From NCBI GenBank assembly GCA_015222755.1, contig JADFVX010000064.1, positions 1-55,104 on the forward strand: a DNA stretch of 55,104 bases, in the 5' to 3' direction. Positions 5,508 to 42,221 of the stretch are shown piece after piece; position 1 is the first letter of the stretch, and each line of letters opens with the position of its first letter. Below the pieces are notes generated by a model, which saw only the letters and a program-made list of their open reading frames with translations, was not told the origin of the DNA and searched no databases. The stretch is from Pseudomonadota bacterium. Lineage in GTDB: Bacteria > Desulfobacterota > JADFVX01. The translations under genes and the position numbers were made by a program.

Positions 5508-5520
5508 GCTTAGCTAAGAA

Positions 5521-8019: not shown

Positions 8020-8207
8020 GGCAGTTAGGACTCCGGCCCCAAATAGGACAAATGAGGTAAATTAACAGATGTAATGGCCTTAAATCAAGGTAATTTAAAA
8101 CAAAAGAGGCTGTAAGCATAAAGGGCAATAAGATGTTTTCTCTTTTAAAAAGAGTGGAACTATGGTATTTTCCCAAACTGTTTCTTAGGCTTAAAAAGGT
8201 TCTATTC

Positions 8208-10261: not shown

Positions 10262-10276
10262 TAGTCTTAGTAGCCA

Positions 10277-14921: not shown

Positions 14922-14923
14922 GA

Positions 14924-21134: not shown

Positions 21135-21642
21135 TGTTTTATAAATTTAAAATTGAGATATTTTTTTCAGGGGTTTGCAAAAATGGGTTATGAAAGGAGG
21201 AATCTTTATTGAATCTTTAAAATAATGGTTCGGCTATTCTATTTTTATGCAATTTTCACAGCTTGGTTTCATTAGCATTAATTCCCATCTCAACAAATCT
21301 GGACATTTATACCACATTAAAAATCAAAAAGCGCAACATATATTACTTTTTTGCATTTTCCCGTGGAATTTGTGTTGGTTGCTTGAAACAAGGCTGGCTT
21401 TTATTGATTTCAGTTTGTAATCTGCACTTTTTGAATTGCTTGCCAAAATCAACATTACAGGAAGGAAGTGTTGAGGACTTCATCTACGAAGGCTCAGAAA
21501 TTGAAAGTATGGAAGTTGACGATTACTGTAAAAAGGTTGAATATATGATAATGGCTGACAGTCATCAACTATAATTTTTTCAACAAACCCTTTTTACTGG
21601 ATAAACTTATATATAAATCAATAATAAGTGGGGGAGATTCAA

Positions 21643-21925
21643 ATGACAAAAGTTGTGCGTGTAACACCGGAAGAGACCTATAAGAAAGTGGAATCAGGTA
21701 AAGCGCTGCTTGCATGCGCTTACGATGATGATGAAAAGTTCAGGCTGATGCAACTGCAAGGAGCGGTCTCGTTTAGTGAATTGGAATCGAAACTCGAATC
21801 ACTGCCAAAAAACCAGGAGATCATCTTCTATTGCGCCTGAATACATTAAAAAAGGTTATAAAGATGCAAAGTGTCTCGGTGGCGGCGTCGAGGCCTGGAA
21901 AAGTGCCGGCTATCCAGTAAAGTAG
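21643..21925 (+). pseudogene. Single-domain rhodanese, disrupted (frameshift plus loss of the active-site loop)
   Basis: Frame 1 reads ...EIIFYCA then TGA. Frame 2 continues EYIKKGYKDAKCLGGGVEAWKSAGYPVK*. The expected CxxGxRS loop and the following helix are missing between the two parts. Confidence 0.6.
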
Positions 21926-22005
21926 TCATAATTCAAGCATCTTTATTAACACTGTTTGGTGCACATATCACCGGGAAATGTTTCTGTTTAAGCTCGGACG
22001 TATTC

Positions 22006-24699: not shown

Positions 24700-26103
24700 T
24701 CATTCTGCTTCCTCGTTGTTGTCCTTGATTTGAAGTTGCCTGTATAATAAGATCGACATCCAGCCAATAACAAAAACACCGGCAAACATAATAGTCCAAA
24801 GAATATATTTTTTCCACGGCCATACAGACGGCAAGGGTTTTAATTGTTTTTCTCCACCAATGATAAATTCTGAAGAGTGTGTAAGCAGTCTGGGAGTAAT
24901 ATTTCTGCCTACACTTGCCTTGTATTTGTTTAGCAATGCATCGATATGGAAGCTTGTTGGCTCAACACTCCTGCTTCCATAGGCTATCTGGAAAGGGCCT
25001 GAACCCTGAGCTAGAAAAACAAGTCGTCTAGCTTGCCAGCCAAATTCCAGCACAGGGATACCATTTATTTCAGATTCACTCTCTTCCGTAACAATCATCC
25101 AATAACGTTGAGCTGTAGACCTGACAATTACAGGGGAATTGAATATCTGATCTCCTTTAAAATCGAGGTTGTAAACTAGTCCCCTCCAATGTTCTTTCAT
25201 TGGACCTTCCGAAGAGTCCCCAGATGATAATCTTAATCCTGCCATAGCATTATTTTCCGGCAAGCGAATTCTTATCCTGTCTACATGCAGGAAACCTTTG
25301 AGATCAACTAAGTACTTCCCCGGCTCACCAGACACAGGAATAACCTGCGGTGTCAGCCATCTTCTCGCCGGATTTTCCACAGTATTGCTTATACGCGATA
25401 CAAGAGCCACTTTTGTTAAATCAATTGGGGTTTGATCTGCTGCCCAGCTAAAACGCAGGTACTTGGCTTTGCAATTATTCAAGATTATCTTGTTTCTATC
25501 AAGCCGGTAGCCTTGATACCCTAGCCTTGCTACCGTTTCAGTGACAAGACTACGCCAATTAGTAAGATCATCACTCGAATCGACAATGATGATGCCAAAA
25601 AAGTCTGCTTCAGCGTCAGACCATGAGAGTTCAATTGCATAAATAGGTTCTTTGAGGGCGCTGGCATCTACAAGGTAGGAGAGTGTCTTTTCTTCTTTTG
25701 AAGCATCCCTTCGGCTAGGCGCTTTGACATCAACAATTGTGCCTTCCTCATTCTTTTCAACATGAACGGACAGGCCGCCAGTTTTATTATCCAGTTCCCC
25801 CTTTATAGGGAAAAAGGGCAAGTTTTTATAGATGATATCTTTCTGGCTGGTTATATTTCCCGGTCTGCGCAAGGCATGGGGTACTACCTGTCCGGAACCA
25901 TTAAAGACCCTGACATCCCCAAGATCACGGCGTGTTGTCTTTTGATATATCTCAAGAGGGATTTCTAATTCATAGAAGGCGTTGTCCCCGGAAACTTCCA
26001 GTTGCATGCCATAGGCAAACATCTCAGGCCTTGGCACCGTTTTGGCAAAAGACGTTCCTACAATCCCCAAAAAGAAAATAGATAAAATAAAATATTTTTT
26101 CAT
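24700..26103 (-). CDS. DUF3999-like protein (signal peptide, large periplasmic domain, C-terminal TM anchor)
   Basis: 467 aa. The N-terminal pattern F.YGM.LE......FYELEIPLEIY....R.DLGDVRVFNGSGQVVPHAL is as I recall for DUF3999. A 4-nt overlap (ATGA) links it to the upstream gene. Confidence 0.7.
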   Translation of the reverse strand: MKKYFILSIFFLGIVGTSFAKTVPRPEMFAYGMQLEVSGDNAFYELEIPLEIYQKTTRRDLGDVRVFNGSGQVVPHALRRPGNITSQKDIIYKNLPFFPIKGELDNKTGGLSVHVEKNEEGTIVDVKAPSRRDASKEEKTLSYLVDASALKEPIYAIELSWSDAEADFFGIIIVDSSDDLTNWRSLVTETVARLGYQGYRLDRNKIILNNCKAKYLRFSWAADQTPIDLTKVALVSRISNTVENPARRWLTPQVIPVSGEPGKYLVDLKGFLHVDRIRIRLPENNAMAGLRLSSGDSSEGPMKEHWRGLVYNLDFKGDQIFNSPVIVRSTAQRYWMIVTEESESEINGIPVLEFGWQARRLVFLAQGSGPFQIAYGSRSVEPTSFHIDALLNKYKASVGRNITPRLLTHSSEFIIGGEKQLKPLPSVWPWKKYILWTIMFAGVFVIGWMSILLYRQLQIKDNNEEAE

Positions 26104-28829
26104 TCTGCTTCCGCTGCCTCTTGAATGCGAGGGGGCATAGGTGCCAGATAGCCTATCAGGAGGCAGATACCACCGACTCCCATAAACGATACAATACGCT
26201 CCACCGTGCCTGTATTGGACAAATCGAATAGGAATAGCTTAATGACAACGATGCCTATAAGACCCGCACCTCCGATCCAAACATTTCGGACGCTTTTTCT
26301 TTTTCCCCATAGCATGACAGCAAAGGCCGACAGAGTCCAGAAAATGGACAGGGATGTCTGAACAAGATCAGAAGTCACCATGGATTGCAAGTTGAAGGAA
26401 ACGCCACCCCAGTAATGAAGGGTGCGGATGAGTATGGCATTTAACCATAAAAAAACCGTCGCCCCCATAGTTGCAAACAAGTGAATTCTGCTCAAGTTAA
26501 AGGGATAAATGCTAAATTCTTTATGGACTGCCAGAGCCCAGAAAAATATAGCAATCAGGACAAATGCCTGCGACAAATCAAGCGGATTAAGCAAGGGGGC
26601 ATAACTTATGGGCCAAGGGTCTCCCTTACTAAGGAGATTAATAAAGATTGTTCCCAGCCATAAGCAGGTCACTACAGGGACCAGTCCAGAATAAAGATAG
26701 GTCTTTTTATGTACAGATACCGGCCATGAGAGAGAGCAATGCCATTTACTGAGGAACATAACAAAGATTGCAGGCATAACACCCCAAGGAACAAGCCCCC
26801 AGATACCGCCACCCCTCACCATGTGGTCAGACCACCAGGCTATCTCCCAGGTAATCAAGGTAATGAGCGACAAGAAAGTTCCAAGGTGCAGGTACTTCAT
26901 CAGATTGGTGAAAGGACTTTCATCATCTTTGTACAATAGCCAGTATTGAATTATAAATACCAGGGGCCAGGCAGCGTAGCCACCGTAAACTGAGGGACGG
27001 CTGTTGAAATTAATTAAGGAATAGCCCCCCCCCAAAATCAAAATAGGTAGTATGATTTTATAAACATGCTTAAGCCTTCCCCAGTAAAGTTTTTCTCCGA
27101 CAACAAAACCTATAAGACCCGATATTGAGAAAAACGAAATTATATAAGCAAGCCTATAATTCGTGTGTACAAAGGCATCAATCTCATGGATGCCGCCCCC
27201 GAACCACCAGAGAAGTGCCCATCCCATTGCAAGAAGACTTTCAACATTGGCCGTCTCTATTTTTTCTCTTTGAAGATAAAGGCGGTAGCTACTGAAAAAA
27301 CCGGCAAGAGAAATCAACATACATCCAAGGAAGTATCCGTTGATCACGGCAATTATGCCACTTGGTTCTTTAATGGCGGATAGAAAGGCAAAGCCTGCCA
27401 AAACCTGTAGGAGGAGACCAAAAACTCGCGCCATCCCTCTTTGCCGTTTTATCGCTATCCAGACAATGGCCGAGCCCTCAAGCGCCCAGGCTGCGGAGGT
27501 CCACCGTCCATCAAGAGCTAGAGGGATTGCAACGGTTCCAAATACTACTCCCATGGCAAGAAAGGACTCTACAAGTGTGCGCATTGCATCGCTCCCCTTC
27601 TTAAATACCTGCCATGCCAGGGCAGCATACAAAGCGCCCATGACCAGGGCTGACCAAGCCAAACCGTATTCGTAAGGTTTTACAAGAACGGCCTGAAGGG
27701 CAAAACAAACCAAAGGTGTTCCGAATATAAGCGTGCAGTCAATATAACCCTTGTGCTGTAAAGGCTGATTGCTTGCGAAAAGAAGCCCGATAATCACGTA
27801 AAATATAAAGAAAAGAATTAGGAAAGGTTCCGTGCTTGCAAACATATCAGCTTGATAATTATTGCTACCCCAAATCAAACCGATACCAAAGGTAAAAATA
27901 AAACCAATGAGGTTAAGTTCCCGCCATGATTTATAGCGGGCAGTTAAAAGAATACCGCCGTTAAGTAGTGCGTAGTAAGTGAAAAGCATAACATGGTTAC
28001 CACTCCCAGTTGAAGTTAGTATGGGTGCTAGGAAACCGCCGCTTATACCTATAACAGCAAGGGACCGCGCATTCTGAATGATTGCCAGTGCCGCTGAGAA
28101 AACAGACAGCCCAACCAGCAGAGCAAGGGCTACCCCAAAGGGCACGAGTTGATAAAGCTTCATAGCAGCAAAGATAGTCAGGTAAAGAATCCCAACACCT
28201 CCGCCTTGGAGTATTAAGGCGTACTCCGGCATTTTCAAACGCAAGCGCCAGCCAAAAACCAACAAAGCTATTGCACCTATACATATAGAGACAAGTCTAA
28301 ACTCTATAGGAATAAGATTCCGTTCAATCGTATATTTCAGAAGAAAAGCAACGCCGAAAAATAAAACTATAATTCCTACCCTAACCACCACATTCCCACC
28401 GGTAAAATAGGAAAGAACAATGTTCCAGAGTTCCAATAGTGGATCTTTTCTATTAGGTGCTACAAATATGGATAAAGGTTCCACTTCGGGCTCACTCGGT
28501 TCACTATGAGTCACTGGGATGGTAATTGCCAACTCATCAATTTTTCCCGATACAGGTTCAAGCACCGGTTTAGCCGGCTCATAGCGAGTTGCCTCCAGTT
28601 CTTCTTCCTCAACTTTTTGTTCTTCTGCTACTATATGTGATTTTTGTACTGTTTTAAGCGCAGGCTGAATGTTTTTTTCAAGGCTTGCTATCTTTTTCTC
28701 AAGACGTACAAGCTTCGATATAAGAAAAGCTATTAAGCCGCCTGTAATAGCACCCAGTAAAAAATGACTACGCGATTCGAAAAGCATCACACCGAGAATC
28801 ACACCGATTATCAAGTTTACAAAGGTCAT
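26100..28829 (-). CDS. DUF2339-like very large polytopic membrane protein (>20 predicted TM helices, N-terminal coiled-coil)
   Basis: 909 aa, almost entirely hydrophobic helices after an N-terminal TM + coiled coil + acidic linker. It pairs with a DUF3999-like gene. Confidence 0.7.
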   Translation of the reverse strand: MTFVNLIIGVILGVMLFESRSHFLLGAITGGLIAFLISKLVRLEKKIASLEKNIQPALKTVQKSHIVAEEQKVEEEELEATRYEPAKPVLEPVSGKIDELAITIPVTHSEPSEPEVEPLSIFVAPNRKDPLLELWNIVLSYFTGGNVVVRVGIIVLFFGVAFLLKYTIERNLIPIEFRLVSICIGAIALLVFGWRLRLKMPEYALILQGGGVGILYLTIFAAMKLYQLVPFGVALALLVGLSVFSAALAIIQNARSLAVIGISGGFLAPILTSTGSGNHVMLFTYYALLNGGILLTARYKSWRELNLIGFIFTFGIGLIWGSNNYQADMFASTEPFLILFFIFYVIIGLLFASNQPLQHKGYIDCTLIFGTPLVCFALQAVLVKPYEYGLAWSALVMGALYAALAWQVFKKGSDAMRTLVESFLAMGVVFGTVAIPLALDGRWTSAAWALEGSAIVWIAIKRQRGMARVFGLLLQVLAGFAFLSAIKEPSGIIAVINGYFLGCMLISLAGFFSSYRLYLQREKIETANVESLLAMGWALLWWFGGGIHEIDAFVHTNYRLAYIISFFSISGLIGFVVGEKLYWGRLKHVYKIILPILILGGGYSLINFNSRPSVYGGYAAWPLVFIIQYWLLYKDDESPFTNLMKYLHLGTFLSLITLITWEIAWWSDHMVRGGGIWGLVPWGVMPAIFVMFLSKWHCSLSWPVSVHKKTYLYSGLVPVVTCLWLGTIFINLLSKGDPWPISYAPLLNPLDLSQAFVLIAIFFWALAVHKEFSIYPFNLSRIHLFATMGATVFLWLNAILIRTLHYWGGVSFNLQSMVTSDLVQTSLSIFWTLSAFAVMLWGKRKSVRNVWIGGAGLIGIVVIKLFLFDLSNTGTVERIVSFMGVGGICLLIGYLAPMPPRIQEAAEAE

Positions 28830-28914
28830 AATTCCACCATCCCTCTCATTGGTTAATCGGACAAAATGTCTTTAAAAGATCAATCCCCTCGCTAGACATT
28901 AAAATCCCCAAAAC

Positions 28915-28950
28915 AAAAAAGCCCGTCGCAGTAGATAACTGCTTCGGGCT
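28915..28950 (-). terminator. Duplicate copy of the ABC-F terminator hairpin
   Basis: The minus strand reads GCCCGAAGCAG-TTATCTA-CTGCGACGGGC followed by TTTTTT. It is homologous to 34048-34085. Confidence 0.5.
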
Positions 28951-29102
28951 TTCAAATTCTTCAAACTGTTTTTTCAAAACCACTCCCCCCTTACCCCCCC
29001 ATTAGAACCAGCAATTACCAAATTGAACGACAACTCTATCTTACATCCCCCAGATTTTCAAACACTTTTTTGACTGCGTTAGCAATTTACGCCCATTAAA
29101 AA

Positions 29103-29282
29103 CTAATTTTCTGATGCCTCTTTAATAGCCTCCAGTCCCTCCCATCTTTTATAGGCCCTGGCAAGAGTCTCTTCTGTTTCTTCCACTTCAGCCTTAAGAC
29201 CTGCGACCTTCCCGCTCTGCTGGTATATCTCAGGGTCGGCCATTAGCTTATAGAGTTCCTCTTTTTTTGCATCAAGGGACAT
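29103..29282 (-). pseudogene. Remnant of an ABC-F ATPase C-terminus (59 codons), diverged duplicate of the 3-prime end of 34213-35991
   Basis: It translates to MSLDAKKEELYKLMADPEIYQQSGKVAGLKAEVEETEETLARAYKRWEGLEAIKEASEN*. The intact gene ends ...LDAKKEELYKLMADPAIYQQSGKVAELNAEAEETEETLARSYKRWEELEAIKEASEK*. Confidence 0.8.
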
Positions 29283-29297: not shown

Positions 29298-31358
29298 TTA
29301 ACTTTCGCCAGATTTAAGTCCGGTAATTTCATAGATCATAACAGACTGGTCCTTCCCCTTAACCTTTACCGGCTCTATTTCTTTAAATCTCGCATGTGCA
29401 ATTAAATCTCCTTTTAAATCATCAGGCCCCTGGGGCTGCTCGTCTGTGGCCAGAAGATGTTTTATCTTGTCATAGGTGAACTCTGTAATCAGTATATGGT
29501 CATTATAGACACGGGTTAAGGCCTCAACCCGTGCACCGAGATTGACATGATCACCGATGATGGTATAGTCCATCTTTTTCCCCTCGGCCCCTATATTTCC
29601 TATCAAAACCTCTCCGCTATTTACCCCTATTCCTATGTCGAGGGGCTCTTTGCCCTCTGTCTTCCATTTCTCCTGTAGGGCAGCCAGCCTGTCCATCATA
29701 TTAAGGGCACATCTAACTGCCAACTCAGCGTGGTTTTCCTGGGGTAGGGGCTCTCCCCAAAAGGCCATTATCTCATCTCCGACAAACTTATCCAGCGTTC
29801 CATCCCACCTGAAGACAACCTTGGTCATTTCAGCCAGATACTCATTAAGGATAGGCACAACCTCTTCGGGACTCCTCTTTTCCGAATATGTTGTAAATCC
29901 CCTTATATCCGAGAAAAGGACGGTGACTTCACTTCTATGCCCCCCCAGCTTAGCCATTTCCGGGTGGTCAACCAGCTCATTGACGACCCTTTCGGTGACA
30001 TAGCTTGAAAACATATTCCTTATATCCTTTGCCTTCCTCTCCTCAGTGAAAAAACGGTATGTTGTAATCGTTGAATAAAGGAGAAATATGTTGAAAGAGG
30101 GGAGGAGCAACCCCATCCACAAGCGGTAGCGTATAAGCAGGTACTGTATCAGGAAGAGATAGACAAGCAATAAGATAGCAGACAGCAGAACCCCTCCGCC
30201 AGCCCGCAGCCTCGGCAGGCTAAGCCCCATGATCAGTCCACACACAATAATCGCAGCTATTTCCAGAAGTTTTGTGCCTTCCTCCTTACGAAGAAAGTTA
30301 TTTTTGAGGAGGTTCTCGATAACGGTGGCCTGCTTCTCAATACCATGAAGCTGGGCAAAGGGGGTAATGTGGGTATCTGTTGTACCAAAGGCGGTGGCAC
30401 CAACAAGGACGATCCTGCCCTTAAGAGTGTCGGCAGCCAGCTTCCCCTCCATAAGGTCTGAGGCAGAGTAATCAGGGAAAGTGCCGGTCCTGCCGGCATA
30501 GTTTATAAGGGCTCTCCCAGACTCGTCCGTTGGAACAAAGTTCTCCCCCATCATGATACCCTCACCCAGGCTAAGGCTCAGCTCACTCCGATCAAGACCG
30601 AGGTAGTGCCTCACCACTTCTATGCCGAAGGATGGATAATAAAACTCCTCCAGCTTTACATACAAGGGCTCCCATCTTATGGCGCCGTCCCTCTCGTAAT
30701 AGGTATAGGCATGCCCCATTGACTGTGCACTGGAAATCAGCTCTTCGATAGGGATGATCGCCCTGTTTGCAACAATAGGCATGTTAAGCACACCTTCCCT
30801 GACTATCATAAAGGGGTAGTCGTAGACATGGTCGGGGACCTCGGAGAGGCTGGACTCTTCATAGATGGTCGGAACGTCCATAACAAAACCCAGTATCACA
30901 TTTTCCGCCTTTTCTATACTATTGGCAAGCCTGGCATCGGCATTGTCCTCCTCGCCCCGCCTTGCCAGAGATTCCTCAAAGGCCCTATCCCTGACCTTCA
31001 GCCTTCCGTAATCACTTTTAATAGCGTCTATGACCTTTGATGTTTCTGTAATCTGCGGCTCCGCAAACAATACATCGACACCTATCGTCTTTGCCCCCCC
31101 TTCAGATATCCTTTCTATCAGGGTGGCAAACTTATCCCTGGGCCAGGGCCACCTTCCGACCTTTTTCAGGCTTTCATCATCTATGGCAACGATGACTATA
31201 TCTTTTCCGGGATCACGCTCCCCTCTCAGCATAAGCCTGAAATCAAAGGCCTTGGCCTCAAGAAGCTCTATAAAGAGCGGTGTCTTGACAGCCAAGGCTG
31301 CAGATAGGACTACACAGAGGAAGGCGATCAGGTAACAGTTCTTTTTGGAAGGCTTCAC
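29298..31358 (-). CDS. CHASE2 sensor domain-containing class III adenylate/guanylate cyclase
   Basis: Layout is an N-terminal TM, a ~330-aa periplasmic CHASE2-like domain, 3 TM segments, then a cyclase domain (VTVLFSDIRGFT...GDEIMAFWG...GVNSGEV). GTG 31358 is preceded by GGGAGGG; the ORF-track ATG 31397 has no RBS. Confidence 0.88.
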   Translation of the reverse strand: MKPSKKNCYLIAFLCVVLSAALAVKTPLFIELLEAKAFDFRLMLRGERDPGKDIVIVAIDDESLKKVGRWPWPRDKFATLIERISEGGAKTIGVDVLFAEPQITETSKVIDAIKSDYGRLKVRDRAFEESLARRGEEDNADARLANSIEKAENVILGFVMDVPTIYEESSLSEVPDHVYDYPFMIVREGVLNMPIVANRAIIPIEELISSAQSMGHAYTYYERDGAIRWEPLYVKLEEFYYPSFGIEVVRHYLGLDRSELSLSLGEGIMMGENFVPTDESGRALINYAGRTGTFPDYSASDLMEGKLAADTLKGRIVLVGATAFGTTDTHITPFAQLHGIEKQATVIENLLKNNFLRKEEGTKLLEIAAIIVCGLIMGLSLPRLRAGGGVLLSAILLLVYLFLIQYLLIRYRLWMGLLLPSFNIFLLYSTITTYRFFTEERKAKDIRNMFSSYVTERVVNELVDHPEMAKLGGHRSEVTVLFSDIRGFTTYSEKRSPEEVVPILNEYLAEMTKVVFRWDGTLDKFVGDEIMAFWGEPLPQENHAELAVRCALNMMDRLAALQEKWKTEGKEPLDIGIGVNSGEVLIGNIGAEGKKMDYTIIGDHVNLGARVEALTRVYNDHILITEFTYDKIKHLLATDEQPQGPDDLKGDLIAHARFKEIEPVKVKGKDQSVMIYEITGLKSGES

Positions 31359-31517
31359 TACACCCTCCCAGGCTGAGAGGATGCAGTCGCCGTGCATGCA
31401 GAATGAAAAATAAATTGTTTAAACATCGGAAATCAACATAGCTTAAGGTATATTCCGCTTAATAATGACAAAAGATATTATGTTGTAAACTATAGCTTCT
31501 TACATCATATCAGCCTA

Positions 31518-32345
31518 CTACACTGGTGATTCAAGTGGCGGTTCTTCAACGGGTGGTTCCGGTTCCAGTATCTCCGGGTAGGTATCTGTTACAGGGGGGC
31601 TTACAGGAGGCACAGCAAATCCAGGTTCACTAATTATTTGCGGGCCGCCACGGGGAACTCCCAGTTCTTCCGGAGACAAGTGCTGGTCATCTTTAACAGG
31701 GGAGGTATCTCTAAGGTGGGGAATCAGCTCTTCAAGCCTAACACGCCGCGGCGGCGTAGGGGGGCGGTTAGCAGGTACGCTCGTCCCCATCATCGGTCCC
31801 AGTATAACCTCCCCGGCAATACCGGGCTTAACATTCCTGACAGCAACACTCCCCCTCAGGACCATCTCTTCTGTTGAAAGGGGAAGAGGATTTATAATAT
31901 TGAGCCAGTCTGTCCCTCTTACAATAGCCACAGCGGTAGGCGTTTCAACCTCAAAGCGGGAACCTTCACCGGCAAACTCCTCAGGCACTATGGCCCTAAA
32001 TTTACCCCTGAAACTCCTGAGAAGTACCGTCCTCTTATTCCGGGCGGTATCAATGTCAAACGCCTTTATCTCTATCCTCGATTTCTGCGCAATATTCAGC
32101 TTTGTGCCGTCTGTAAAGGTTAACTGCGCCCTGGACTTGCTCTTGGTCCTGAGTATATCACCAGTATTAAGGCCATCCCCCAGGTTGAGTAGAATTGCCC
32201 TCTCTGCGCCCAGCTTCAGGACATCTACATCCCCTCTCATAAAGGTCAGCTTTGCCACCACCTCAGCCATAGAAAACTCCGGCAGGGCTGCAATAATAAA
32301 TGCAGCAATTATCATACTGTATATCTTGGCCCTGTTTCTTATCAT
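31518..32345 (-). CDS. FecR-domain periplasmic protein with a Pro-rich C-terminal extension
   Basis: It has a signal/anchor segment and a FecR-like beta region (GDVDVL......L..GD.L..GD.L.T...S.A.L.F.DG). The last ~90 aa are Pro/Glu-rich (PPTPP...PEPPVEEPP). Confidence 0.8.
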   Translation of the reverse strand: MIRNRAKIYSMIIAAFIIAALPEFSMAEVVAKLTFMRGDVDVLKLGAERAILLNLGDGLNTGDILRTKSKSRAQLTFTDGTKLNIAQKSRIEIKAFDIDTARNKRTVLLRSFRGKFRAIVPEEFAGEGSRFEVETPTAVAIVRGTDWLNIINPLPLSTEEMVLRGSVAVRNVKPGIAGEVILGPMMGTSVPANRPPTPPRRVRLEELIPHLRDTSPVKDDQHLSPEELGVPRGGPQIISEPGFAVPPVSPPVTDTYPEILEPEPPVEEPPLESPV

Positions 32346-32367
32346 CGCTTTCCCCTTTGATTAAATA

Positions 32368-33771
32368 TTAAAAAACGGCCTCCACACTGACACCAAAAAT
32401 CCGCCTGTCATAATCATAAACGCTAATGTTAGAGTCAGCTTTGCTGTATGTATATACTAATTTCAAAACAAGGTTTTCATGTTTGTATTTTAGAGATGAG
32501 TTCAGGGCATAAATCCTGTCACGCCTCTTCTTGGCAAATGTAGTGTGTATATTTTTATAGTTCTTATGGTAATAACCGCCGTTAAGATTCAAGCTTAAAC
32601 GGTTGGCAAGCGGATACTTAAGCATTATACCGCCCTTGTTCCCCCTGCTTTCCCAGTTGGCTCCGTCTGTATTGCTCTTATCAAAGCTGTACTTAATCTG
32701 CAGAGTACCTCCTTTATCGCCATATGAAACAAGATATCCCAGGCCAAAATTTAAATTTGTTCCATCTCTATCTTCATATTGGTTAAGAGGGGTTCTCAAA
32801 AAGTCTCTTGATGCTACACCAGCTGTAAAGTTCAGCCAGCTTTTATTTCCAAGGGAATGGGTATATAAGGGCCTCAGACTCAGCACCTCAAGATAGCCAC
32901 CTGAATCTACGGTATAATGCTCATAGCCGGCCATCAAGCTAAGCGTCCCTTTCCCTGTCTTTTTTGAGGGGGTCAATGAAATACGGTGCCCCTGCACATC
33001 CAGTTCCTTAAGATCATCATGGATACTCTGGTAAAAAGAATAGTTGGTTTTTATAGCAAAGTTATCAAAAGAAGTTGAATAATCCAATCTTGCGCTTATT
33101 ACGGACCTTCCATCACTTTCATTGCTTATATCGACGCCGGGAACATCATGTGATGGTTTTAGCATTACATTATCATCGTACTGGTACGAATAAGCCAGGC
33201 CCAGCTTTAAGCGCCCTTTTCCTTTTTTGATCGATTCCTTTGCTTTCCTGGCAAGAGTTGCCGCTTCAGACCCGGGCTCAGAGGCTATCAGGCTGTTTAG
33301 TTTACTTTTACCCCGGATTTTATGGCCTTTACTTAAGTGAACAAGCCCCTTCAGGTAGCTTATTTGAGATGAACTCACCCCTTTCTCCTTGGCCTTTAAC
33401 AGCAATTCCTCCAGTTCATTTCTAGCATTGGTAGCATAGAGAACTTCTCCCAGGTGCCCATAAGTCTTTTCTATAGATGGATCAAGCAATAGTGCCTTGT
33501 TTAGATATACTTTAGACTGCTGATAATCGAGTGTCTCTTTATAGGCAAGACCAATATGGAGTGCAGTTGAAGCAGAAGCAGGATCTGCATCAAAGGCATG
33601 CAACAAAGCAGGAATGGCCTCCTCGTAGTTTTCATTTTTAAAGTCAGCAAGCCCCGTCTCTAGAGAGGCCCCCTCACTAGCGTATGAGACCTTAGCACCG
33701 AGAAATACCGAGGCAACAAAAAATAGAAATAAGCTTAGCAGAAGATTGGCAGAAAAACCCCTATTCATCAT
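32368..33771 (-). CDS. Outer-membrane protein: N-terminal TPR region + C-terminal predicted beta-barrel (DUF560/Slam-like architecture)
   Basis: AAGGAGG RBS and a signal peptide are present. TPR-like helices span about aa 35-190. Alternating-hydrophobic strands then run to the terminal ...VEAVF (aromatic C-terminal residue). Confidence 0.6.
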   Translation of the reverse strand: MMNRGFSANLLLSLFLFFVASVFLGAKVSYASEGASLETGLADFKNENYEEAIPALLHAFDADPASASTALHIGLAYKETLDYQQSKVYLNKALLLDPSIEKTYGHLGEVLYATNARNELEELLLKAKEKGVSSSQISYLKGLVHLSKGHKIRGKSKLNSLIASEPGSEAATLARKAKESIKKGKGRLKLGLAYSYQYDDNVMLKPSHDVPGVDISNESDGRSVISARLDYSTSFDNFAIKTNYSFYQSIHDDLKELDVQGHRISLTPSKKTGKGTLSLMAGYEHYTVDSGGYLEVLSLRPLYTHSLGNKSWLNFTAGVASRDFLRTPLNQYEDRDGTNLNFGLGYLVSYGDKGGTLQIKYSFDKSNTDGANWESRGNKGGIMLKYPLANRLSLNLNGGYYHKNYKNIHTTFAKKRRDRIYALNSSLKYKHENLVLKLVYTYSKADSNISVYDYDRRIFGVSVEAVF

Positions 33772-34047
33772 ATTTCCTCCTTATAAATTAACCATTGCCC
33801 AATTACATATTGAAAAAACGTAAAATTAAATCCATTATTGACAAACTACAGTGGCCCTCGGGCACAAAACAACGAGCGGAACAAACCGGATCAGCGACTA
33901 TACTTGCATTATCTCTCAATCCAAAACAAAAAGATACACCGCCTTTTCAGACGCAACAAGCAGCATGTAGGTATTCACAGGATTGTTTAGTGATGATCGC
34001 AGGATTTGGAAATGGGAGGGGAATAGGGACAGATGCACTAGCTCAAA

Positions 34048-34085
34048 ACAAAAAAGCCCGGTGCAGTAAAATACTGCTTCGGGCC
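34048..34085 (-). terminator. Rho-independent terminator of the ABC-F gene
   Basis: The minus strand reads GCCCGAAGCAG-TATTTTA-CTGCACCGGGC followed by TTTTTT. Confidence 0.65.
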
Positions 34086-34212
34086 TTCAAATACTTACCA
34101 TTAGAACTACAAGGCTCAAGCTCTAAGGGCATAAAGTTCCACTTTCTGAGCTTGAGAAGATTAGTGGAACTTATACCCGGCAGGTGTATAAATTCCAATT
34201 GTTTTTTTAAAG

Positions 34213-35991
34213 CTACTTCTCTGATGCCTCTTTGATGGCCTCCAGTTCCTCCCACCTTTTATAGGACCTGGCAAGTGTCTCTTCTGTCTCTTCCGCTTCA
34301 GCATTAAGCTCGGCGACCTTCCCGCTTTGCTGGTATATCGCAGGGTCGGCCATTAGCTTATAGAGCTCCTCTTTTTTTGCATCAAGGGTCTCGATCTGCC
34401 CGGGCAGTTCATCGAGTTCTGTTTTTTCCTTAAAGCTCAGCTTACGGGGCTTCTTATTTTGCTGGCCGGACTTTGCACCCGCTTTCGCCTTTGTCTTGCC
34501 CTTTGCCTTCCGCTGCCTCAGCCAGTCATCGTAACCGCCGATATACTCTTCCACCCTCTCTTCACCTTCAAATACCAGGGTGCTGGTGACTATATCGTTG
34601 ATAAAGCTGCGGTCGTGGCTTACCAGGAGCAGAGTCCCGGTGTAATCTATGAGCAGTTCTTCCAGCAGGTCCAAAGTCTCCATGTCGAGGTCGTTGGTAG
34701 GTTCGTCCATGACTATCATGTTGGAGGGCTTTGTAAAGAGTTTGGCGAGAAGAAGCCTGTTGCGCTCTCCGCCGGAAAGCACCTTTACGGGGCTTCTCGC
34801 CCTGTCGGGGGTAAAGAGGAAGTCCTGCAGGTAGCCTATTATATGTTTAGGCTTGCCGTTGATGATGACCTGATCGTTACCTTCACCCACGTTTTCCTGC
34901 ACCGTCTTGTCCTCGTCAAGCTGCGAACGGAGCTGGTCGAAGTATGCTATGTCGAGCCTGGTTCCCAGCTTAACTTCCCCTGAGAGCGGCTCTAGCTGGC
35001 CCAGCAGGGTCTTTAAGAGTGTCGTCTTTCCCGCACCGTTTGGGCCTATGATGCCTATCTTGTCGCCGCGCATGATAAGCGTTGAAAGATCGCGGGCCAC
35101 TACCTTGTCTCCGTAACCGCAGGTGACACCTTCCGCCTCGACGACAATCCTGCCGGACTTCCTTGCATCCTGGAGCTTCATGCTTACGCTGCCCGTCTGT
35201 GTGCGCCGTGCCTGTTGCTCCTCGCGCATCTTTTTAAGTGCCCTGACGCGTCCCTCGTTGCGGGTACGCCTTGCCTTTATCCCCTTTCTTATCCAGACCT
35301 CCTCTTCGGCAAGTTTTTTGTCGAAGCGGGAATTCTGGCTCTCCTCGGCCTCAAGCATGGCGTCTCTGCGCTCCAGATAGGAGGGGTAGTCACAGTCCCA
35401 GTTTATCAGCCTGCCCCTGTCGAGTTCTACGATACGTGTTGCCAGCCGCTGGAGGAAGGCCCTGTCATGGGTGATAAATAGTAGAGTGCTGCCGTAGCGG
35501 ATGAGGAAATCTTCCAGCCATAGGATGGAGTCGATATCGAGGTGGTTTGTCGGTTCATCGAGGAGCAGGAGGTGAGGTTCGGTGACAAGCCCACGGGCAA
35601 GCAGCACCCGGCGCTTCAGCCCTGCCGAGAGATTGGCAAAGGGGGCGTCTCCATCGAGAGACATCCTGGAGAGCAATTTTTCTATGCGCTGTTGGTCTTC
35701 CCAGTTGTACTCTTCATCCAGTGCTTCGGCGATTACCTCCGAGACGCTGCCCTCCAGTCCCTTTGGCACTTCCTGGGACAGGGAGGCGACGCGCAGCCCC
35801 TGCTGGCGGACTATCTCACCTCCATCGGGTACGAGCAGTCCCTCGACCAGCTTGAGGAGTGTAGATTTGCCGGCACCGTTACGGCCGAGTATGCAGACGC
35901 GCTCCCCCTCTTCGATTTGAAGCGTTGTCCCGTCGAGTAGTGGTGCCCCGCCGAAGCCGAGGCGGATATCTTGCAGACTGATAAGTGCCAT
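34213..35991 (-). CDS. ABC-F family ATPase (Uup-like, two NBDs + C-terminal coiled coil, no TM domain)
   Basis: Two Walker A motifs (GRNGAGKST, GPNGAGKTT), two signature motifs and two Walker B motifs (LLLDEPTNHLD, IVMDEPTNDLD) are present. Confidence 0.9.
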   Translation of the reverse strand: MALISLQDIRLGFGGAPLLDGTTLQIEEGERVCILGRNGAGKSTLLKLVEGLLVPDGGEIVRQQGLRVASLSQEVPKGLEGSVSEVIAEALDEEYNWEDQQRIEKLLSRMSLDGDAPFANLSAGLKRRVLLARGLVTEPHLLLLDEPTNHLDIDSILWLEDFLIRYGSTLLFITHDRAFLQRLATRIVELDRGRLINWDCDYPSYLERRDAMLEAEESQNSRFDKKLAEEEVWIRKGIKARRTRNEGRVRALKKMREEQQARRTQTGSVSMKLQDARKSGRIVVEAEGVTCGYGDKVVARDLSTLIMRGDKIGIIGPNGAGKTTLLKTLLGQLEPLSGEVKLGTRLDIAYFDQLRSQLDEDKTVQENVGEGNDQVIINGKPKHIIGYLQDFLFTPDRARSPVKVLSGGERNRLLLAKLFTKPSNMIVMDEPTNDLDMETLDLLEELLIDYTGTLLLVSHDRSFINDIVTSTLVFEGEERVEEYIGGYDDWLRQRKAKGKTKAKAGAKSGQQNKKPRKLSFKEKTELDELPGQIETLDAKKEELYKLMADPAIYQQSGKVAELNAEAEETEETLARSYKRWEELEAIKEASEK

Positions 35992-36066: not shown

Positions 36067-37053
36067 CTATGATGCGACTGCCTGGCAGCGACCCTTGTCC
36101 TTTGCCTTGTAAAGCCTCTGATCGGCAATATCGACAAGATCGCTCCAAGTGGCATTTGCCTTTTCTTCAATCTCACAGCAGTTTCCGATACCTATACTTA
36201 TGGTGAGTACCTTAAAAGAGCTTTTTTCGTGAGGGATTTTAAGTGACTGAACATCTTTAACAATCTCTCCCGCTTTTAAGGCCGTATCCTTAAGCCCTGT
36301 TTCAGGCATCAGAAGCAGGAATTCCTCTCCCCCATAACGGTAGAGCCTGTCTGCCTCGCGTATGATAAATTCTATGCGATTGGCCACTTTTTTCAGCACG
36401 TCATCTCCTGCAAGGTGACCGTAATGATCATTGTAATTTTTAAAATAGTCTATATCGATGAGCATTACCGAATAGTGAAACTGGTAGCGCGTGGCTGAAG
36501 CGTGAGTATGTTGCAGATCCACTTCCATTGCCCTGCGATTGCCGATACCAAGTAGTGCATCTTCCATTGATAGAGCCTTCAACTCTTTGTTTGCCCGGAT
36601 TAATTCCCGGGTTCGCTCATCTATAGATGTTTCTACTATCTCCCGTTGATGTTCGTAGAGATTGAAGTGAGCTTTTACAAGGTCGGACTGTGTGACAATC
36701 CCGACAATCCTGCCGTCGGGATTAATAACCGGAAGGTGGCGCACTTTTTCTGCCCTGGCTACAACCAGGGCCTCAAAAAGGGTATCGCTTTCGTTAACTG
36801 TAACAGGTGGGCTTGACATCACATCTGAAATTATTGTGGTAGCTGGTGAAATAGGTGGGCTATGATCGGCCATCAGTTTTACAATGTCCCGCTCTGTGAG
36901 GATCCCCACCGGTTTCTCTTCTTCACTGATTACGATACATGAAAAGCGCTTGTCCCGCATGATTAGTAGAGCTTTCCCCAAGGTCTCGCCAGGGGCAACG
37001 CAGTAAACCTTTTTGGTCATAAGGTTTTGAATGCCGGTAGATATATTTTTCAT
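36067..37053 (-). CDS. CBS-pair + GGDEF diguanylate cyclase
   Basis: Two CBS motifs, a coiled-coil linker and a GGDEF domain with an intact RYGGEEF are present. ATG 37053 has a better RBS than 37077. Confidence 0.88.
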   Translation of the reverse strand: MKNISTGIQNLMTKKVYCVAPGETLGKALLIMRDKRFSCIVISEEEKPVGILTERDIVKLMADHSPPISPATTIISDVMSSPPVTVNESDTLFEALVVARAEKVRHLPVINPDGRIVGIVTQSDLVKAHFNLYEHQREIVETSIDERTRELIRANKELKALSMEDALLGIGNRRAMEVDLQHTHASATRYQFHYSVMLIDIDYFKNYNDHYGHLAGDDVLKKVANRIEFIIREADRLYRYGGEEFLLLMPETGLKDTALKAGEIVKDVQSLKIPHEKSSFKVLTISIGIGNCCEIEEKANATWSDLVDIADQRLYKAKDKGRCQAVAS

Positions 37054-37199
37054 GAAGGCCCCTTGAGATAAAGACATGAATTATATCATATTTCAAGGGG
37101 TGTTGCTAGGCAGGTGCAGGCCATCTCGTCCAAAATTTTTTGACGGGGGAGAGGGAACTAAGGCCATTTAGTTACAAAACAAAGATTAGAACTCTTGCT

Positions 37200-39795: not shown

Positions 39796-40485
39796 TTAGT
39801 CAAAAAGATTGTATCTGAGTATGCAGTATAGCGCTCTCACCCCATCTTTCCATCCTATTTTTTTCCCCTCTTCATATGTACGGCCTGAATAGGATATCCC
39901 GACTTCATAAATTCTTAAATGTTTCTTCGCCATTTTTGCTGTTATCTCTGGTTCAATGCCAAAGCGGTTTTCCTTTATTGTGATGCCTTGGATCACTTCT
40001 CTTCGAAAGGCTTTGTAACATGTCTCCATATCCGTCAGATTCAGATTGGTAAACATGTTGGACATTAGAGTCAAAAAGCGGTTTCCTATCATGTGCCAGA
40101 AATAGACGACGCGATGCGCATCACCACCCATAAACCTTGAACCGTAAACAACATCAGCCTTACCTTCTATAATTGGCGTAATAAGTTTAAGGTATTCCTC
40201 AGGGTTGTACTCCAGGTCAGCATCCTGTATAACGACTATATCACCGCTGGCACTATGGAAGCCTTCTCTTAGAGCAGCTCCCTTACCGCTATTTTTCTCC
40301 AGGTAAATAACCTTGTCAACCAGCGGCTCAATATCTGTGCGCAGTATTTCCCGCGTTCCGTCTGTAGAACAGTCGTCAACGATAATAATTTCAAATGGCG
40401 TATAAGAGCAATTCCTAACGGCACTTACTACCTCCCTGATGGTTTCTTTCTCATTAAAACAGGGGATGACAACGGATAATCTCAT
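39796..40485 (-). CDS. Family 2 glycosyltransferase (polyprenyl-phosphate sugar synthase type: DPM1/GtrB/ArnC-like)
   Basis: Motifs seen: [28 protein letters not shown]. 229 aa, soluble/peripheral. Confidence 0.88.
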
Positions 40486-40543
40486 TATATGGTATCCTTT
40501 CTTGGCAAAATTAAATTTGATTTAGCTTTAAGAGATCCCGCGG

Positions 40544-40831
40544 CTAAATCTTTGTTTGGGGCTTATCAGAAGTTAAACCTTCTGCAGGGCCTGACAAAAT
40601 ATACAAATAGTTTAAAGTATAGCCTATCGGGCCGAAAAAAAGTGCATATATAAGAAGTTCAATTTCAAATTTATATCTCATTGAGTCTGCGTAAGGTGCC
40701 AATACAGAACCTGCTGTTCCAAAGAAGATAATCGTTAAAAAATAAAGACTCCAGCCTGGGCCGCAGCAAGGGCTTAAATAAAAGGCTTCTTTATAGAAGC
40801 CTTTTTGAAAGGCCATTTTGATATTTTTCAA
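40544..40831 (-). CDS. Possible small 2-TM membrane protein
   Basis: The ORF sits between the GT-C and GT2 genes and is hydrophobic. It overlaps the upstream gene by 26-41 nt and lacks a clear RBS. Confidence 0.3.
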   Translation of the reverse strand: MKNIKMAFQKGFYKEAFYLSPCCGPGWSLYFLTIIFFGTAGSVLAPYADSMRYKFEIELLIYALFFGPIGYTLNYLYILSGPAEGLTSDKPQTKI

Positions 40832-42221
40832 TAGGATTTAAATTCTTTGCCGCAATTAATGTGACAATGTAATACATCATGGGAATAAAGATTAAAATAT
40901 TACGATTAACAGCCATTAAATTCATGGTATATAAATAATTCCCGGAAGTAATATAGGTGACCAGAAACAATCCCATAATAAAAAATAGCGTTGTAACGAG
41001 ATATTTGATATTAGATCCTAAAACTATTTTCACGCTAAGCAGTAAGGTTGAGAAAAAGAAAAAGAAGATAATATTGAAATTCGCTGAGTACATAATTTGA
41101 TCCCACATTACAGGGAGTACCTCAAAATGTAGTCCCGACTTCAAAAAACCTTCTCCTCGTTCTGAAGCAATATTATTTGCAAATAAAAAAGTATGCCATG
41201 GGATTGCAATGACAAATATTGGGACTATGAATGCGAACAAGCTCCTGAGGGCTAGTTTTTTGAGCAATAAAAATATTACGATAGTGCCTGAAAAAGCTAT
41301 TACAAGGAAAACCCCTTCCAGTTTTGTCCACATACCCAAACCTATATACGCACCTAAAATGAATAACAATTTACGAGCATTGCGCTTTTCACCTATAGCA
41401 ATATTCATGTATCTTCCCAAAATTATTGTAGATACCAAAGTGTAATAGCTTAAAGGAAGGTCTGCGTAGGCAGTGATTGAGTGATAGCTTAGAAGGGGAA
41501 CACTTGATAAAAAGAAAGTTGCCAGGATGGCAGCAAATAAGGACACCTCTCTTTTAAGTGCAGAGTATATAAGGCAAAGAATACTGATAAAAAACACAAC
41601 ATTCCATAGCTTAACAAACACATCGTTAAACTCTCCCACACAAAGAGAAAACCATACCTGCATCAAAGGTAGGTGTAGAGGGTAAGACAAAAAGGTCCTG
41701 TATCCCCTGCCAAAGAAAAATTCATTGGAATCTTCAAGAGCCAAGCCTTTTTCATAGAAAAAAAACTTTGCCCCTAAGCTCCAGTTCATCATGCTGTCAG
41801 GGGCGTGTACGGGCCAGATAAAACTCTGATGAATTATGAAGAAAAGCCTTAGAACAAGCCATGAAATAAAGAATAAAGAAAGAAGTTTTTCCATTTTTGA
41901 AAGATGCTTGAAGCTATTTGCTAGAGCCGGTTGTCTTAAACGGAGCACCTGGCGTAAAGGCATGTTGTCTTTATAGATTAAGTAAGCAAATAAGATGATC
42001 AGTGAAAACGGAATAAGTGAAACTCCCAACAAGTTAAATTCAATCCCCAAAATACCAAGAAGAAACATTGCGAAGCTTGTAATACCTATTCCAAGCCCAA
42101 ATCCAAGGGATAGTCTTTCCAAAAAAGACTGCTCATCATCAAAGCTGTAAAAATAAGAGATAAATAAAAACCCCGCGAAGGTAGGCAGTAAGACAGCATA
42201 TGAAATTTTAAGAAATATCAT
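40791..42221 (-). CDS. Polytopic GT-C-type glycosyltransferase (ArnT/PMT, GT39/GT83-like)
   Basis: 476 aa with about 12 TM helices, typical GT-C size and topology. It neighbours a polyprenyl-P-sugar synthase-type GT2. Confidence 0.65.
   Translation of the reverse strand: MIFLKISYAVLLPTFAGFLFISYFYSFDDEQSFLERLSLGFGLGIGITSFAMFLLGILGIEFNLLGVSLIPFSLIILFAYLIYKDNMPLRQVLRLRQPALANSFKHLSKMEKLLSLFFISWLVLRLFFIIHQSFIWPVHAPDSMMNWSLGAKFFFYEKGLALEDSNEFFFGRGYRTFLSYPLHLPLMQVWFSLCVGEFNDVFVKLWNVVFFISILCLIYSALKREVSLFAAILATFFLSSVPLLSYHSITAYADLPLSYYTLVSTIILGRYMNIAIGEKRNARKLLFILGAYIGLGMWTKLEGVFLVIAFSGTIVIFLLLKKLALRSLFAFIVPIFVIAIPWHTFLFANNIASERGEGFLKSGLHFEVLPVMWDQIMYSANFNIIFFFFFSTLLLSVKIVLGSNIKYLVTTLFFIMGLFLVTYITSGNYLYTMNLMAVNRNILIFIPMMYYIVTLIAAKNLNPIEKYQNGLSKRLL

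Follow-up and report, generated by a model that had tools for sequence, protein, structure and literature searches.

A probable envelope-spanning cAMP signalling module: a TPR-barrel outer-membrane protein and a FecR-domain protein encoded beside a CHASE2 adenylate cyclase

Introduction

How are CHASE2 sensor domains activated, and can a signal reach them from the outer membrane? CHASE2 activation is poorly understood, and the rhizobial NsrA-CyaK system, its sole experimental handle, is tied to a specialised symbiosis. The question is raised again by three adjacent genes in a 55,104-nt stretch of DNA, hereafter the window, from a Pseudomonadota bacterium (GTDB lineage Bacteria; Desulfobacterota; JADFVX01; assembly GCA_015222755.1, contig JADFVX010000064.1, positions 1 to 55,104 of the forward strand). 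They encode an outer-membrane protein (OMP) with tetratricopeptide repeats (TPR) and a β-barrel, a secreted FecR-domain protein, and a CHASE2 class III nucleotide cyclase. An earlier note, made from the letters of this stretch, viewed them as a signalling set laid out like FecA-FecR-FecI, with synthesis of a cyclic nucleotide in place of an extracytoplasmic function (ECF) sigma factor as the output. Our analysis points to a three-protein envelope-spanning module for cyclic AMP (cAMP) signalling, a reading to which we assign a probability of roughly 0.65. In particular, functional linkage of the three genes is strongly supported by their recurrence in other genomes.

Gene order and recurrence of the trio

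All three open reading frames (ORFs) lie on the minus strand: the OMP gene (467 aa; 32368..33771), the FecR-domain gene (275 aa; 31518..32345) after a gap of 22 nt, and the cyclase gene (686 aa; 29298..31358) after a further 159 nt. The ORF list and the sequences before the start codons bear out the earlier note here, as each gene is preceded by its own Shine-Dalgarno sequence.

In the first look-ups, the order OMP, FecR protein, CHASE2 cyclase recurred at approx. 30% OMP identity and with unrelated flanks. An OMP-seeded survey, in which metagenomes were scanned with an alignment of the OMP, yielded 80 loci. A FecR gene lies directly downstream on the same strand in all 72 loci that have at least 400 nt of sequence beyond the OMP gene, and the modal gap between the two is 10-12 nt. 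Among the 31 loci that extend at least 2.2 kb beyond the FecR gene, 20 carry a CHASE2 gene near the pair; every one of these CHASE2 neighbours is a cyclase, and none is a kinase or a GGDEF protein. De novo clustering of the remaining neighbours identified a class-II cAMP phosphodiesterase as the most frequent additional gene (21 loci). Thus, OMP and FecR protein form the invariant core, and the cyclase, which some two thirds of loci contain, is a frequent but not an obligate partner.

A reciprocal survey was seeded with CHASE2 in reference genomes and comprised 80 loci, 13 of which encode CHASE2 cyclases. Since an alignment of 24 CHASE2 sequences was too divergent for pattern design, the pattern was made from a 5-sequence alignment, and the resulting sample is therefore non-random and biased towards relatives with the GRWPWPR motif. 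A FecR gene together with a barrel OMP gene was seen at 4 of the 13 loci with a cyclase and at none of the 67 without (hypergeometric p of approx. 4.5e-4), and the other nine cyclase loci have unrelated neighbours. Profile hidden Markov model (HMM) searches, with which Pfam spot checks agree, detected no FecR domain at the 76 remaining CHASE2 loci with a threshold as loose as E<=1, though the profile may miss FecR domains of the LysM-FecR type. When FecR proteins served as the starting point, a TPR or TPR-barrel gene was found directly upstream in three of three look-ups and a CHASE2 cyclase nearby in one; the upstream gene at locus L172 gave only faint TPR matches and no barrel family.

Neighbour-joining trees, which carry no bootstrap support, show matching subclades for the OMP and CHASE2, and 24 of 27 pair-linked CHASE2 domains fall into two clades that hold only linked cyclases. 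The co-occurrence beyond chance on which the earlier note had staked its model was accordingly seen in both surveys and in congruent trees. Its broader suggestion, that an OMP and FecR partner set might serve as a model for CHASE2 activation, holds for one lineage of CHASE2 cyclases, to which these partners are confined, and fails as a general feature of CHASE2 sensors.

Further genes accompany the pair in some loci. Directly behind the FecR gene, and in some cases between it and the cyclase gene, there is often a gene for a secreted β-helix or immunoglobulin (Ig)-like protein (DUF1565/NosD, Flg_new_2, fn3/Big_13; L170 6835-8097; L104 5573-8011; L004 5531-7156; L172 6796-8166), whose product could be an additional part of the system, for instance a co-receptor or cargo. 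Small genes directly follow a convergent cyclase gene in L001 (13846-14280) and L092 (4679-5116). A PCC-domain protein gene comes after the cyclase gene in L001 and L002, and a 4HBT thioesterase gene is present in six loci.

Most CHASE2 loci from the reference genomes (L009, L011, L014, L018 and approx. 55 more of L007-L086) represent another conserved module, in which a CHASE2-Ser/Thr kinase fusion of approx. 845 aa is followed by a PP2C phosphatase (at least 57 of the 80 loci), an FHA protein (40 loci) and one more Ser/Thr kinase (26 loci). At approx. 20 loci, a metallo-beta-lactamase or class-II-phosphodiesterase-like gene lies approx. 6 kb downstream.

The outer-membrane TPR-barrel protein

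The OMP gene encodes a signal peptide (33679-33771), a TPR domain (33226-33669) and a 14-stranded β-barrel (32371-33213), an assignment drawn from the ORF, Pfam, an AlphaFold2 model and Foldseek. Pfam recognises TPR repeats in the N-terminal part. The C-terminal region scores 34.3 bits with DUF2860, 27.8 with SlipAM/DUF560 and 26.3 with BBP2_2, all above the Pfam gathering cut-offs; the SlipAM score (cut-off 22) is marginal, with DUF2860 and BBP2_2 scoring similarly. The AlphaFold2 model, made from 14 homologues, has a mean predicted local distance difference test (pLDDT) score of 84 and comprises a signal-peptide helix, approx. 10 TPR-type helices (residues 35-182) and exactly 14 β-strands (187-466), and the last residue of the chain is Phe. 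Searched against the PDB with Foldseek, the barrel matches the 14-stranded OmpG and CymA (TM-score of approx. 0.7 on the target), and the whole chain matches the TPR-barrel exporters BcsC and PelBC. The barrel architecture that the earlier note had read from TPR helices, a strand-rich C-terminus and a terminal Phe is hence recovered in the model, and its comparison with the architecture of Slam/DUF560 proteins stands.

This comparison gains from the family as a whole. A full HMM search recovered approx. 1,030 cluster representatives at E<=1e-30, relative to which the 14 family matches of a word-indexed homologue search are a strong underestimate. Members occur in metagenome-assembled genomes (MAGs) labelled Proteobacteria, Geobacteraceae, Nitrospina, Spirochaetia and Mariprofundaceae. 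Of 76 family representatives, 29 match SlipAM (best E=1.9e-14) and 25 match TPR_Slam (best 1.3e-13); these two are the top-scoring barrel and TPR-specific models. Judged by these profile matches, the OMP family appears to be a divergent branch related to Slam/DUF560, and the structural model suggests that the TPR protein is the outer-membrane component of the module.

The FecR-domain protein

The second gene encodes a secreted protein, recognised from Pfam, an AlphaFold2 model, Foldseek and the composition of its tail, in which the FecR domain (PF04773) is found with E=2.7e-12. A Sec-type signal peptide (residues 1-27) ends in SMA and lacks a lipobox Cys. In the AlphaFold2 model, which has a pLDDT of 81 overall, the β-rich FecR/CJM-type domain (residues 29-200; 31746-32261) scores above 90, and its closest PDB match by Foldseek is the cell-surface-signalling domain (CCSSD) of PupR (6OVK, E=8e-7). 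The alignment revealed no counterpart to the approx. 85 N-terminal residues of E. coli FecR that contain the anti-sigma and transmembrane part, and neither Pfam nor the alignment revealed a FecR_C or STN-like C-terminal domain. By these comparisons, the window protein is most simply classed as a FecR-domain protein and not as a FecR-type anti-sigma factor. The FecR domain that the earlier note had read in this protein is confirmed.

The Gly144-Thr145 dipeptide (codons 31911..31916), located by alignments of the family and of E. coli FecR, is invariant in the FecR-protein family and aligns exactly with Gly181-Thr182 of E. coli FecR; the position is likewise invariant in NsrA and in SMc02177 of Sinorhizobium meliloti. 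In E. coli FecR, Gly181-Thr182 is a site of non-enzymatic self-cleavage (PMC9249621). Because the two sites align, secreted FecR-domain proteins may also undergo autoproteolysis at Gly-Thr, as the conservation of the dipeptide suggests.

The folded domain is followed by a Pro/Glu-rich tail (residues 201-275; 31521-31745) identified from its composition and the AlphaFold2 model. Residues 186-275 contain 24% Pro and 17% Glu+Asp, in keeping with the last approx. 90 residues of the earlier note, and approx. the last 50 residues (225-275) are predicted to be disordered. The TonB-like rod of the earlier note is a local variant, since the Pro/Glu tail is limited to the narrow clade of the window. Closer homologues end, after a PPxT motif, in an amphipathic strand with Phe-Pro as its last residues, and in the clade of the window Pro/Glu repeats take the place of this strand; elsewhere in the family, the tails are of other low-complexity types or are replaced by extensions of 400-1400 aa.

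Motif alignment identified within the tail a short linear motif of 13 residues, PPVTDTYPEILEP (residues 250-262; 31560..31598), which is a candidate docking peptide for the OMP. Among closer homologues it is kept as PPVTPPIT[DE]. FecR partners fall into a short class of 206-370 aa and a long class of 428-1636 aa. The motif in the form P-P-[IV]-T-[DE]-x-[YF]-P (also written P[P..][IV]T[DE]x[YF]P) is present in 19 of 29 short partners and in none of 29 long ones; at least 20 of the 29 long partners have a Gly-rich C-terminal GAGAGT...SGTAAG motif. FecR partners therefore conserve C-terminal elements although their middle regions vary greatly, a pattern that suggests a C-terminal docking element after a variable spacer as the conserved feature.

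Tandem repeats were observed at the same tail position. In L003, the FecR tail of a 66%-identical relative contains PVxEP pentapeptides that stem from six tandem 15-nt repeats (10203-10312), and YEPP or PSPGIIQR tandem repeats are found elsewhere in the family. Tail length thus evolves by repeat expansion.

The CHASE2 adenylate cyclase

The third gene was assigned from Pfam, alignment and its ribosome-binding site (RBS), and its product combines CHASE2 (E=1e-58) with a Guanylate_cyc domain (E=1.7e-24), as the earlier note had stated. Translation from the GTG at 31358, where a GGGAGGG Shine-Dalgarno sequence lies 5 nt upstream, is preferred over a longer ATG ORF at 31397 because of this RBS and because orthologues are 685-689 aa long. 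The topology read from the sequence consists of one N-terminal transmembrane helix, the periplasmic CHASE2 domain (30234-31301 by Pfam), three transmembrane helices (approx. 30018-30233) and the catalytic domain (29454-29933 by Pfam). The catalytic domain aligns with established adenylate cyclases, P. aeruginosa CyaB (3R5G, 1.8e-36) and 6FHT (7e-42), and Asp/Asp, Lys/Thr and Asn/Arg pairs are kept in FSDIRGFT, DKFVGDE, DYTIIGD and VNLGAR. In this family, these are the metal-binding, specificity and transition-state residues, respectively. An active cAMP-forming enzyme of class IIIb is therefore predicted, with cAMP as the specific product because the Lys/Thr pair matches that of CyaB. The cyclic nucleotide output proposed earlier is in this way retained and narrowed to predicted cAMP.

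Proposed mechanism

In the reading that we prefer, the OMP would reside in the outer membrane with its TPR domain facing the periplasm. The FecR protein, once exported to the periplasm, would dock with its disordered tail on the TPR domain or the barrel via PPVTDTYPEILEP, and its N-terminal CJM-type domain would reach the periplasmic CHASE2 domain of the inner-membrane cyclase. A cue at or through the OMP could then alter the contact between FecR and CHASE2, which would relieve auto-inhibition by CHASE2 and allow the class IIIb catalytic dimer to make cAMP. What goes beyond the linkage of the genes, namely each contact between the proteins, the ligand, any cleavage at Gly-Thr and the sense of control (activation or relief from inhibition), is inference.

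Relation to known systems

The closest known system is that of NsrA (Garnerone et al. 2018). In two reports (PMC7529298, PMC13001267), NsrA is described as required for signal perception by the CHASE2 cyclases CyaK and CyaD1/D2, and a ribosomal/plant uL2 protein as a candidate ligand of NsrA. S. meliloti CyaD1 without its CHASE2 domain makes cAMP constitutively. In the S. meliloti DNA examined, NsrA is a 1219-aa ORF on pSymB with a FecR domain (residues 85-179; 1.9e-15) and TPR repeats (approx. 397-606); it lies immediately upstream of, and abuts, the CHASE2 cyclase gene cyaK. The published account places its barrel region at approx. residues 600-1200. Like the window, NsrA-CyaK pairs a barrel OMP gene with an adjacent CHASE2 class III cyclase gene and contains a FecR domain, TPR repeats, a barrel and the Gly-Thr dipeptide; the FecR protein of the window matches the FecR domain of NsrA with E=4e-9. 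In NsrA, however, the parts are fused in the order FecR-TPR-barrel, whereas in the window two genes encode first TPR-barrel and then FecR-tail, and the barrel portion of NsrA is much larger than the 14-strand Slam-like barrel of the window. By domain content, NsrA looks like a single-chain version of the OMP and FecR proteins of the window.

Both kinds of partner were observed on either side of one CHASE2 cyclase in L010, a spirochaete MAG (5149-8538 and 14242-15717). One is a full-length NsrA-type fusion of FecR, TPR and barrel upstream of the cyclase, which aligns with the NsrA barrel (E=1e-10), and the other is a stand-alone TPR-barrel OMP of the Slam-like kind.

A second precedent comes from Campylobacterota. 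All adenylate cyclases of this group are reported to be CHASE2 enzymes, and their genes cluster with those for a phosphodiesterase, a FecR-domain protein and a TPR protein (Mo et al., mBio 2022, PMC9239204). The authors infer a single pathway that spread horizontally among phyla, and they relate it to the NsrA model. Compared by domains, the complement is the same as in the window except for the phosphodiesterase, of which the window has none; the four-gene set agrees with the phosphodiesterase as commonest fourth gene in the OMP-seeded census. PMC9239204 calls the FecR protein the outer-membrane component, whereas according to the models obtained here the TPR protein would be the barrel OMP and the FecR protein soluble and secreted. 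By analogy, the window trio can be regarded as a probable split-gene counterpart of NsrA-CyaK and as a cluster of the Campylobacterota type. The signalling model is thus already published in outline (NsrA 2018, Campylobacterota 2022) and is not new. The earlier note had treated the idea as unexplored, which does not hold given these reports and a description of LysM-FecR proteins with CHASE2 kinases in 2016.

In the 2016 case, a LysM-FecR protein (COG4254) is encoded beside a CHASE2 histidine kinase in the Burkholderia BiofilmReg operon and as PA4035/PA4036 (PMC5192318). What this case has in common with the window is the direct adjacency of a gene for a secreted FecR-domain protein and one for a CHASE2 sensor. 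The output, however, runs through a histidine kinase and a response regulator, LysM (peptidoglycan binding) takes the place of an OMP-docking tail, the description names no TPR-barrel OMP, and DUF4136 is the product of the fourth gene. The profiles used in the present surveys detected no protein of the LysM-FecR type.

The FecA-FecR-FecI and PupB-PupR-PupI systems share with the window the CJM-type periplasmic FecR fold, with the Gly-Thr position kept, and the polarity proposed here, that is, a FecR domain near the inner membrane and a C-terminal part directed towards the outer-membrane partner. This polarity is what survives of the Fec parallel drawn in the earlier note. The TonB-dependent transducer, the pair of STN and N-terminal signalling domains, the anti-sigma domain, the transmembrane helix and the ECF sigma factor have no counterpart in the trio, in which the output is instead cAMP synthesis by a separate membrane protein. 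The logic of the trio also resembles that of YfiB-YfiR-YfiN (TpbB) of Pseudomonas, in which an outer-membrane protein gates a soluble periplasmic regulator that acts on the periplasmic domain of an inner-membrane cyclase. All parts are nevertheless unrelated proteins: YfiB is an OmpA/Pal-like lipoprotein, YfiN is a PAS-HAMP-GGDEF enzyme, and the product is cyclic di-GMP and not cAMP.

Slam or type XI secretion system (T11SS) proteins (DUF560, SlipAM) likewise have an N-terminal periplasmic TPR domain and a C-terminal barrel, which in Slam has 14 strands. The gene for the partner adjoins the OMP gene, as in the family of the window, and a conserved element marks the C-terminus of the partner. 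Slam/T11SS proteins are linked with TonB, haem or metal uptake, in contrast to the OMP family of the window, which is linked with cAMP enzymes. T11SS cargo is defined by a C-terminal eight-stranded barrel (PMC12282271); the AlphaFold2 model of the FecR partner contains no such barrel, and Pfam detects no TbpBBD-type domain in it. DUF560 together with FecR found no mention in the literature searched, and the T11SS papers searched name no FecR-domain partner.

Weighing the module against other explanations

Several observations weigh against a three-protein signalling module. Approx. one third of OMP-FecR loci (e.g., L171, L172) have no CHASE2 gene within reach, so that the pair may act independently of a cyclase or its partner may be encoded elsewhere. 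No class-II cAMP phosphodiesterase was detected in the window with an HMM built from the 21 family loci that have one. The 159-nt gap before the cyclase gene could hold a separate promoter for that gene. In S. meliloti, the stand-alone FecR protein SMc02177, encoded beside cyaD1, is dispensable for perception of the plant signal. Finally, by BLASTP, hhalign and the OMP-family profile, the window barrel has no detectable homology to the NsrA barrel, and only the TPR region aligns; for this reason, the parallel with NsrA rests on domain complement and not on full orthology.

The same family features that connect the OMP to Slam also permit a reading between signalling and secretion, which we put forward tentatively and regard as possible rather than probable. 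Here, the OMP would be a working member of the Slam/type XI superfamily recruited for signalling, threading or docking the C-terminal part of its FecR partner. The threaded part would be the 75-residue tail with PPVTDTYPEILEP in the window and, in relatives, a 400-1400-residue extension that ends in the Gly-rich signal. The result would be a two-protein sensor across the outer membrane, whose FecR domain, possibly after self-cleavage at Gly-Thr, would switch the CHASE2 cyclase. The long, variable, Gly/Ser/Thr-rich extensions of relatives make this hybrid attractive.

A purely secretory explanation would make the OMP a type XI (Slam-like) secretin, the FecR protein its surface or secreted cargo (an adhesin or binding protein) and the cyclase a mechanistically unlinked neighbour. 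It accounts for the SlipAM and TPR_Slam matches and the TPR plus 14-strand barrel architecture, for the cargo-like gene that always lies directly downstream of the OMP gene and for OMP-FecR loci that lack a nearby CHASE2 gene. The partners themselves look like cargo in their size range (206-1636 aa), their often Gly/Ser/Thr-rich composition and their conserved C-terminal element, and NCBIfam relates the FecR protein to Leptospira LipL45, a named lipoprotein, and to Lsa33, a surface adhesin. On the other hand, the only folded domain of the FecR protein is N-terminal, and its C-terminus is a disordered tail of 50-75 residues in place of a cargo barrel. The SlipAM score of the window OMP is weak and is matched by that of DUF2860. 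Moreover, an unlinked cyclase would not be expected from CHASE2 neighbours that are cyclases only, from a cAMP phosphodiesterase as commonest fourth gene or from the co-divergence of the CHASE2 and OMP trees, and in NsrA the FecR domain is fused N-terminal to a periplasmic TPR, which is hard to square with export. On balance, this explanation is unlikely.

Far less probable is a role of the OMP in exopolysaccharide export, as a TPR-barrel protein of the BcsC, PelB or EpsL type, with the FecR protein and the cyclase regulating matrix production or co-regulated with it. BcsC and PelBC are indeed the top whole-protein Foldseek matches, and NCBIfam gives weak matches to EpsL and to OMPs associated with PEP-CTERM; these lie, however, far under the cut-off (34 vs 275 bits), and the 14-strand barrel itself is closest to OmpG and CymA. 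Against this role stand also the FecR-domain protein as obligate partner and the result of de novo neighbour clustering, in which no polysaccharide synthase, polymerase or Wza-type gene recurs around the family.

Strict FecA-FecR-FecI signalling, in which an ECF sigma factor is governed through the regulated proteolysis of its anti-sigma factor, can call on the PupR-like FecR fold, the conserved Gly-Thr and the adjoining gene for an outer-membrane partner, but is hardly tenable for a protein in which a signal peptide replaces the anti-sigma domain and transmembrane helix and which lacks a C-terminal STN-like domain, beside a 14-strand barrel with TPR instead of a 22-strand TonB-dependent transducer with an N-terminal signalling domain and with no ECF sigma gene among the immediate neighbours scanned. 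Equally improbable is chance adjacency, or joint horizontal transfer of a cassette of independent functions, which draws on the duplicated ABC-F 3' ends that mark the genes as having moved or been inserted as a block and on the possible separate promoter of the cyclase, since adjacency recurs at approx. 30% identity in many unrelated contexts and several gene orders, every one of the 72 evaluable loci pairs the OMP gene with a FecR gene, CHASE2 partners are without exception cyclases, two of the three parts are fused in NsrA and the trees are congruent.

Transcription unit, cassette structure and neighbouring genes

The three-gene unit, on the minus strand like all features of this section for which a strand was assigned, ends in an intrinsic terminator hairpin with a U-run (28909..28961; dG -26.4 kcal/mol, z = -4.9). 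Upstream of the unit lies the intact 3' end of an ABC-F gene with its own terminator (34044..34388; hairpin dG -22.9), and the module promoter is presumably located between this terminator (34044) and 33772. RNA folding places strong terminators at both ends of the unit and none inside it. In particular, the 159-nt FecR-cyclase gap (31359..31517) shows no terminator-like or significant RNA structure on folding (z-score +0.33); it contains a weak promoter-like match, TTTACA-16-CATTAT, at 31489-31462. Both flanking hairpins were missed by a consensus terminator scan and were detected through repeat analysis and folding. Scans of the window for Rfam families and tRNAs gave no matches.

Repeat search and alignment revealed that the two flanks are related. 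The 370 nt that follow the cyclase stop codon (28909..29278) are a diverged duplicate of the ABC-F 3' end and terminator, in which the last approx. 58 codons of the ABC-F gene occupy 29096-29278. The direct repeats comprise 183 nt at 90% and 53 nt at 87% identity, and the upstream and downstream terminators are copies of one another. The same flanking duplication is found in the relatives L003 (94%; copies at 7373-7440 and 12580-12647) and L087 (82%; 8636-8726 and 13655-13745). Because the trio is flanked by duplicated ABC-F ends in all three loci, it acts as one inserted cassette of approx. 5.1 kb in the lineage of the window; no integrase was found at the cassette. The trio is a real, coherent module inherited as a cassette.

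The gene beyond the cassette is not the same in the window and in L087. Immediately downstream of the cassette in the window, on the same strand, two overlapping genes (24700-28829) encode a DUF2339 membrane protein of 909 aa (2e-176) and a DUF3999 protein of 467 aa (3.5e-95), an apparently conserved pair of unknown function. On the other side, just upstream of the ABC-F gene, a gene at 36067-37077 encodes a CBS-CBS-GGDEF diguanylate cyclase. L003 and L087 have a small zf-dskA_traR gene directly before ABC-F with no GGDEF gene between them, and the GGDEF gene therefore looks like a separate insertion in the lineage of the window. Low G+C content (0.37-0.38) was noted at 20001-22000 and 40001-42000, relative to a window average of approx. 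0.47.

Significance

These findings suggest that the logic of NsrA also exists as a compact and widespread split module. The version in the window is small, and its separate elements (a tail motif of 13 residues, the Gly-Thr dipeptide and the 14-stranded barrel) make it convenient for dissecting how signals pass through the periplasm to a nucleotide cyclase. The findings also set a limit, as FecR and OMP partners belong to a single lineage of CHASE2 cyclases and do not represent a general CHASE2 mechanism. Slam/T11SS outer-membrane proteins and CHASE2/cAMP signalling belong to literatures that are not connected in the papers searched and are joined here. If the hybrid of signalling and threading is true, it would represent a new function for T11SS proteins and a new type of cargo without an eight-stranded barrel, and it would offer many environmental bacteria a general way for their CHASE2 cyclases to sense cues at the cell surface.

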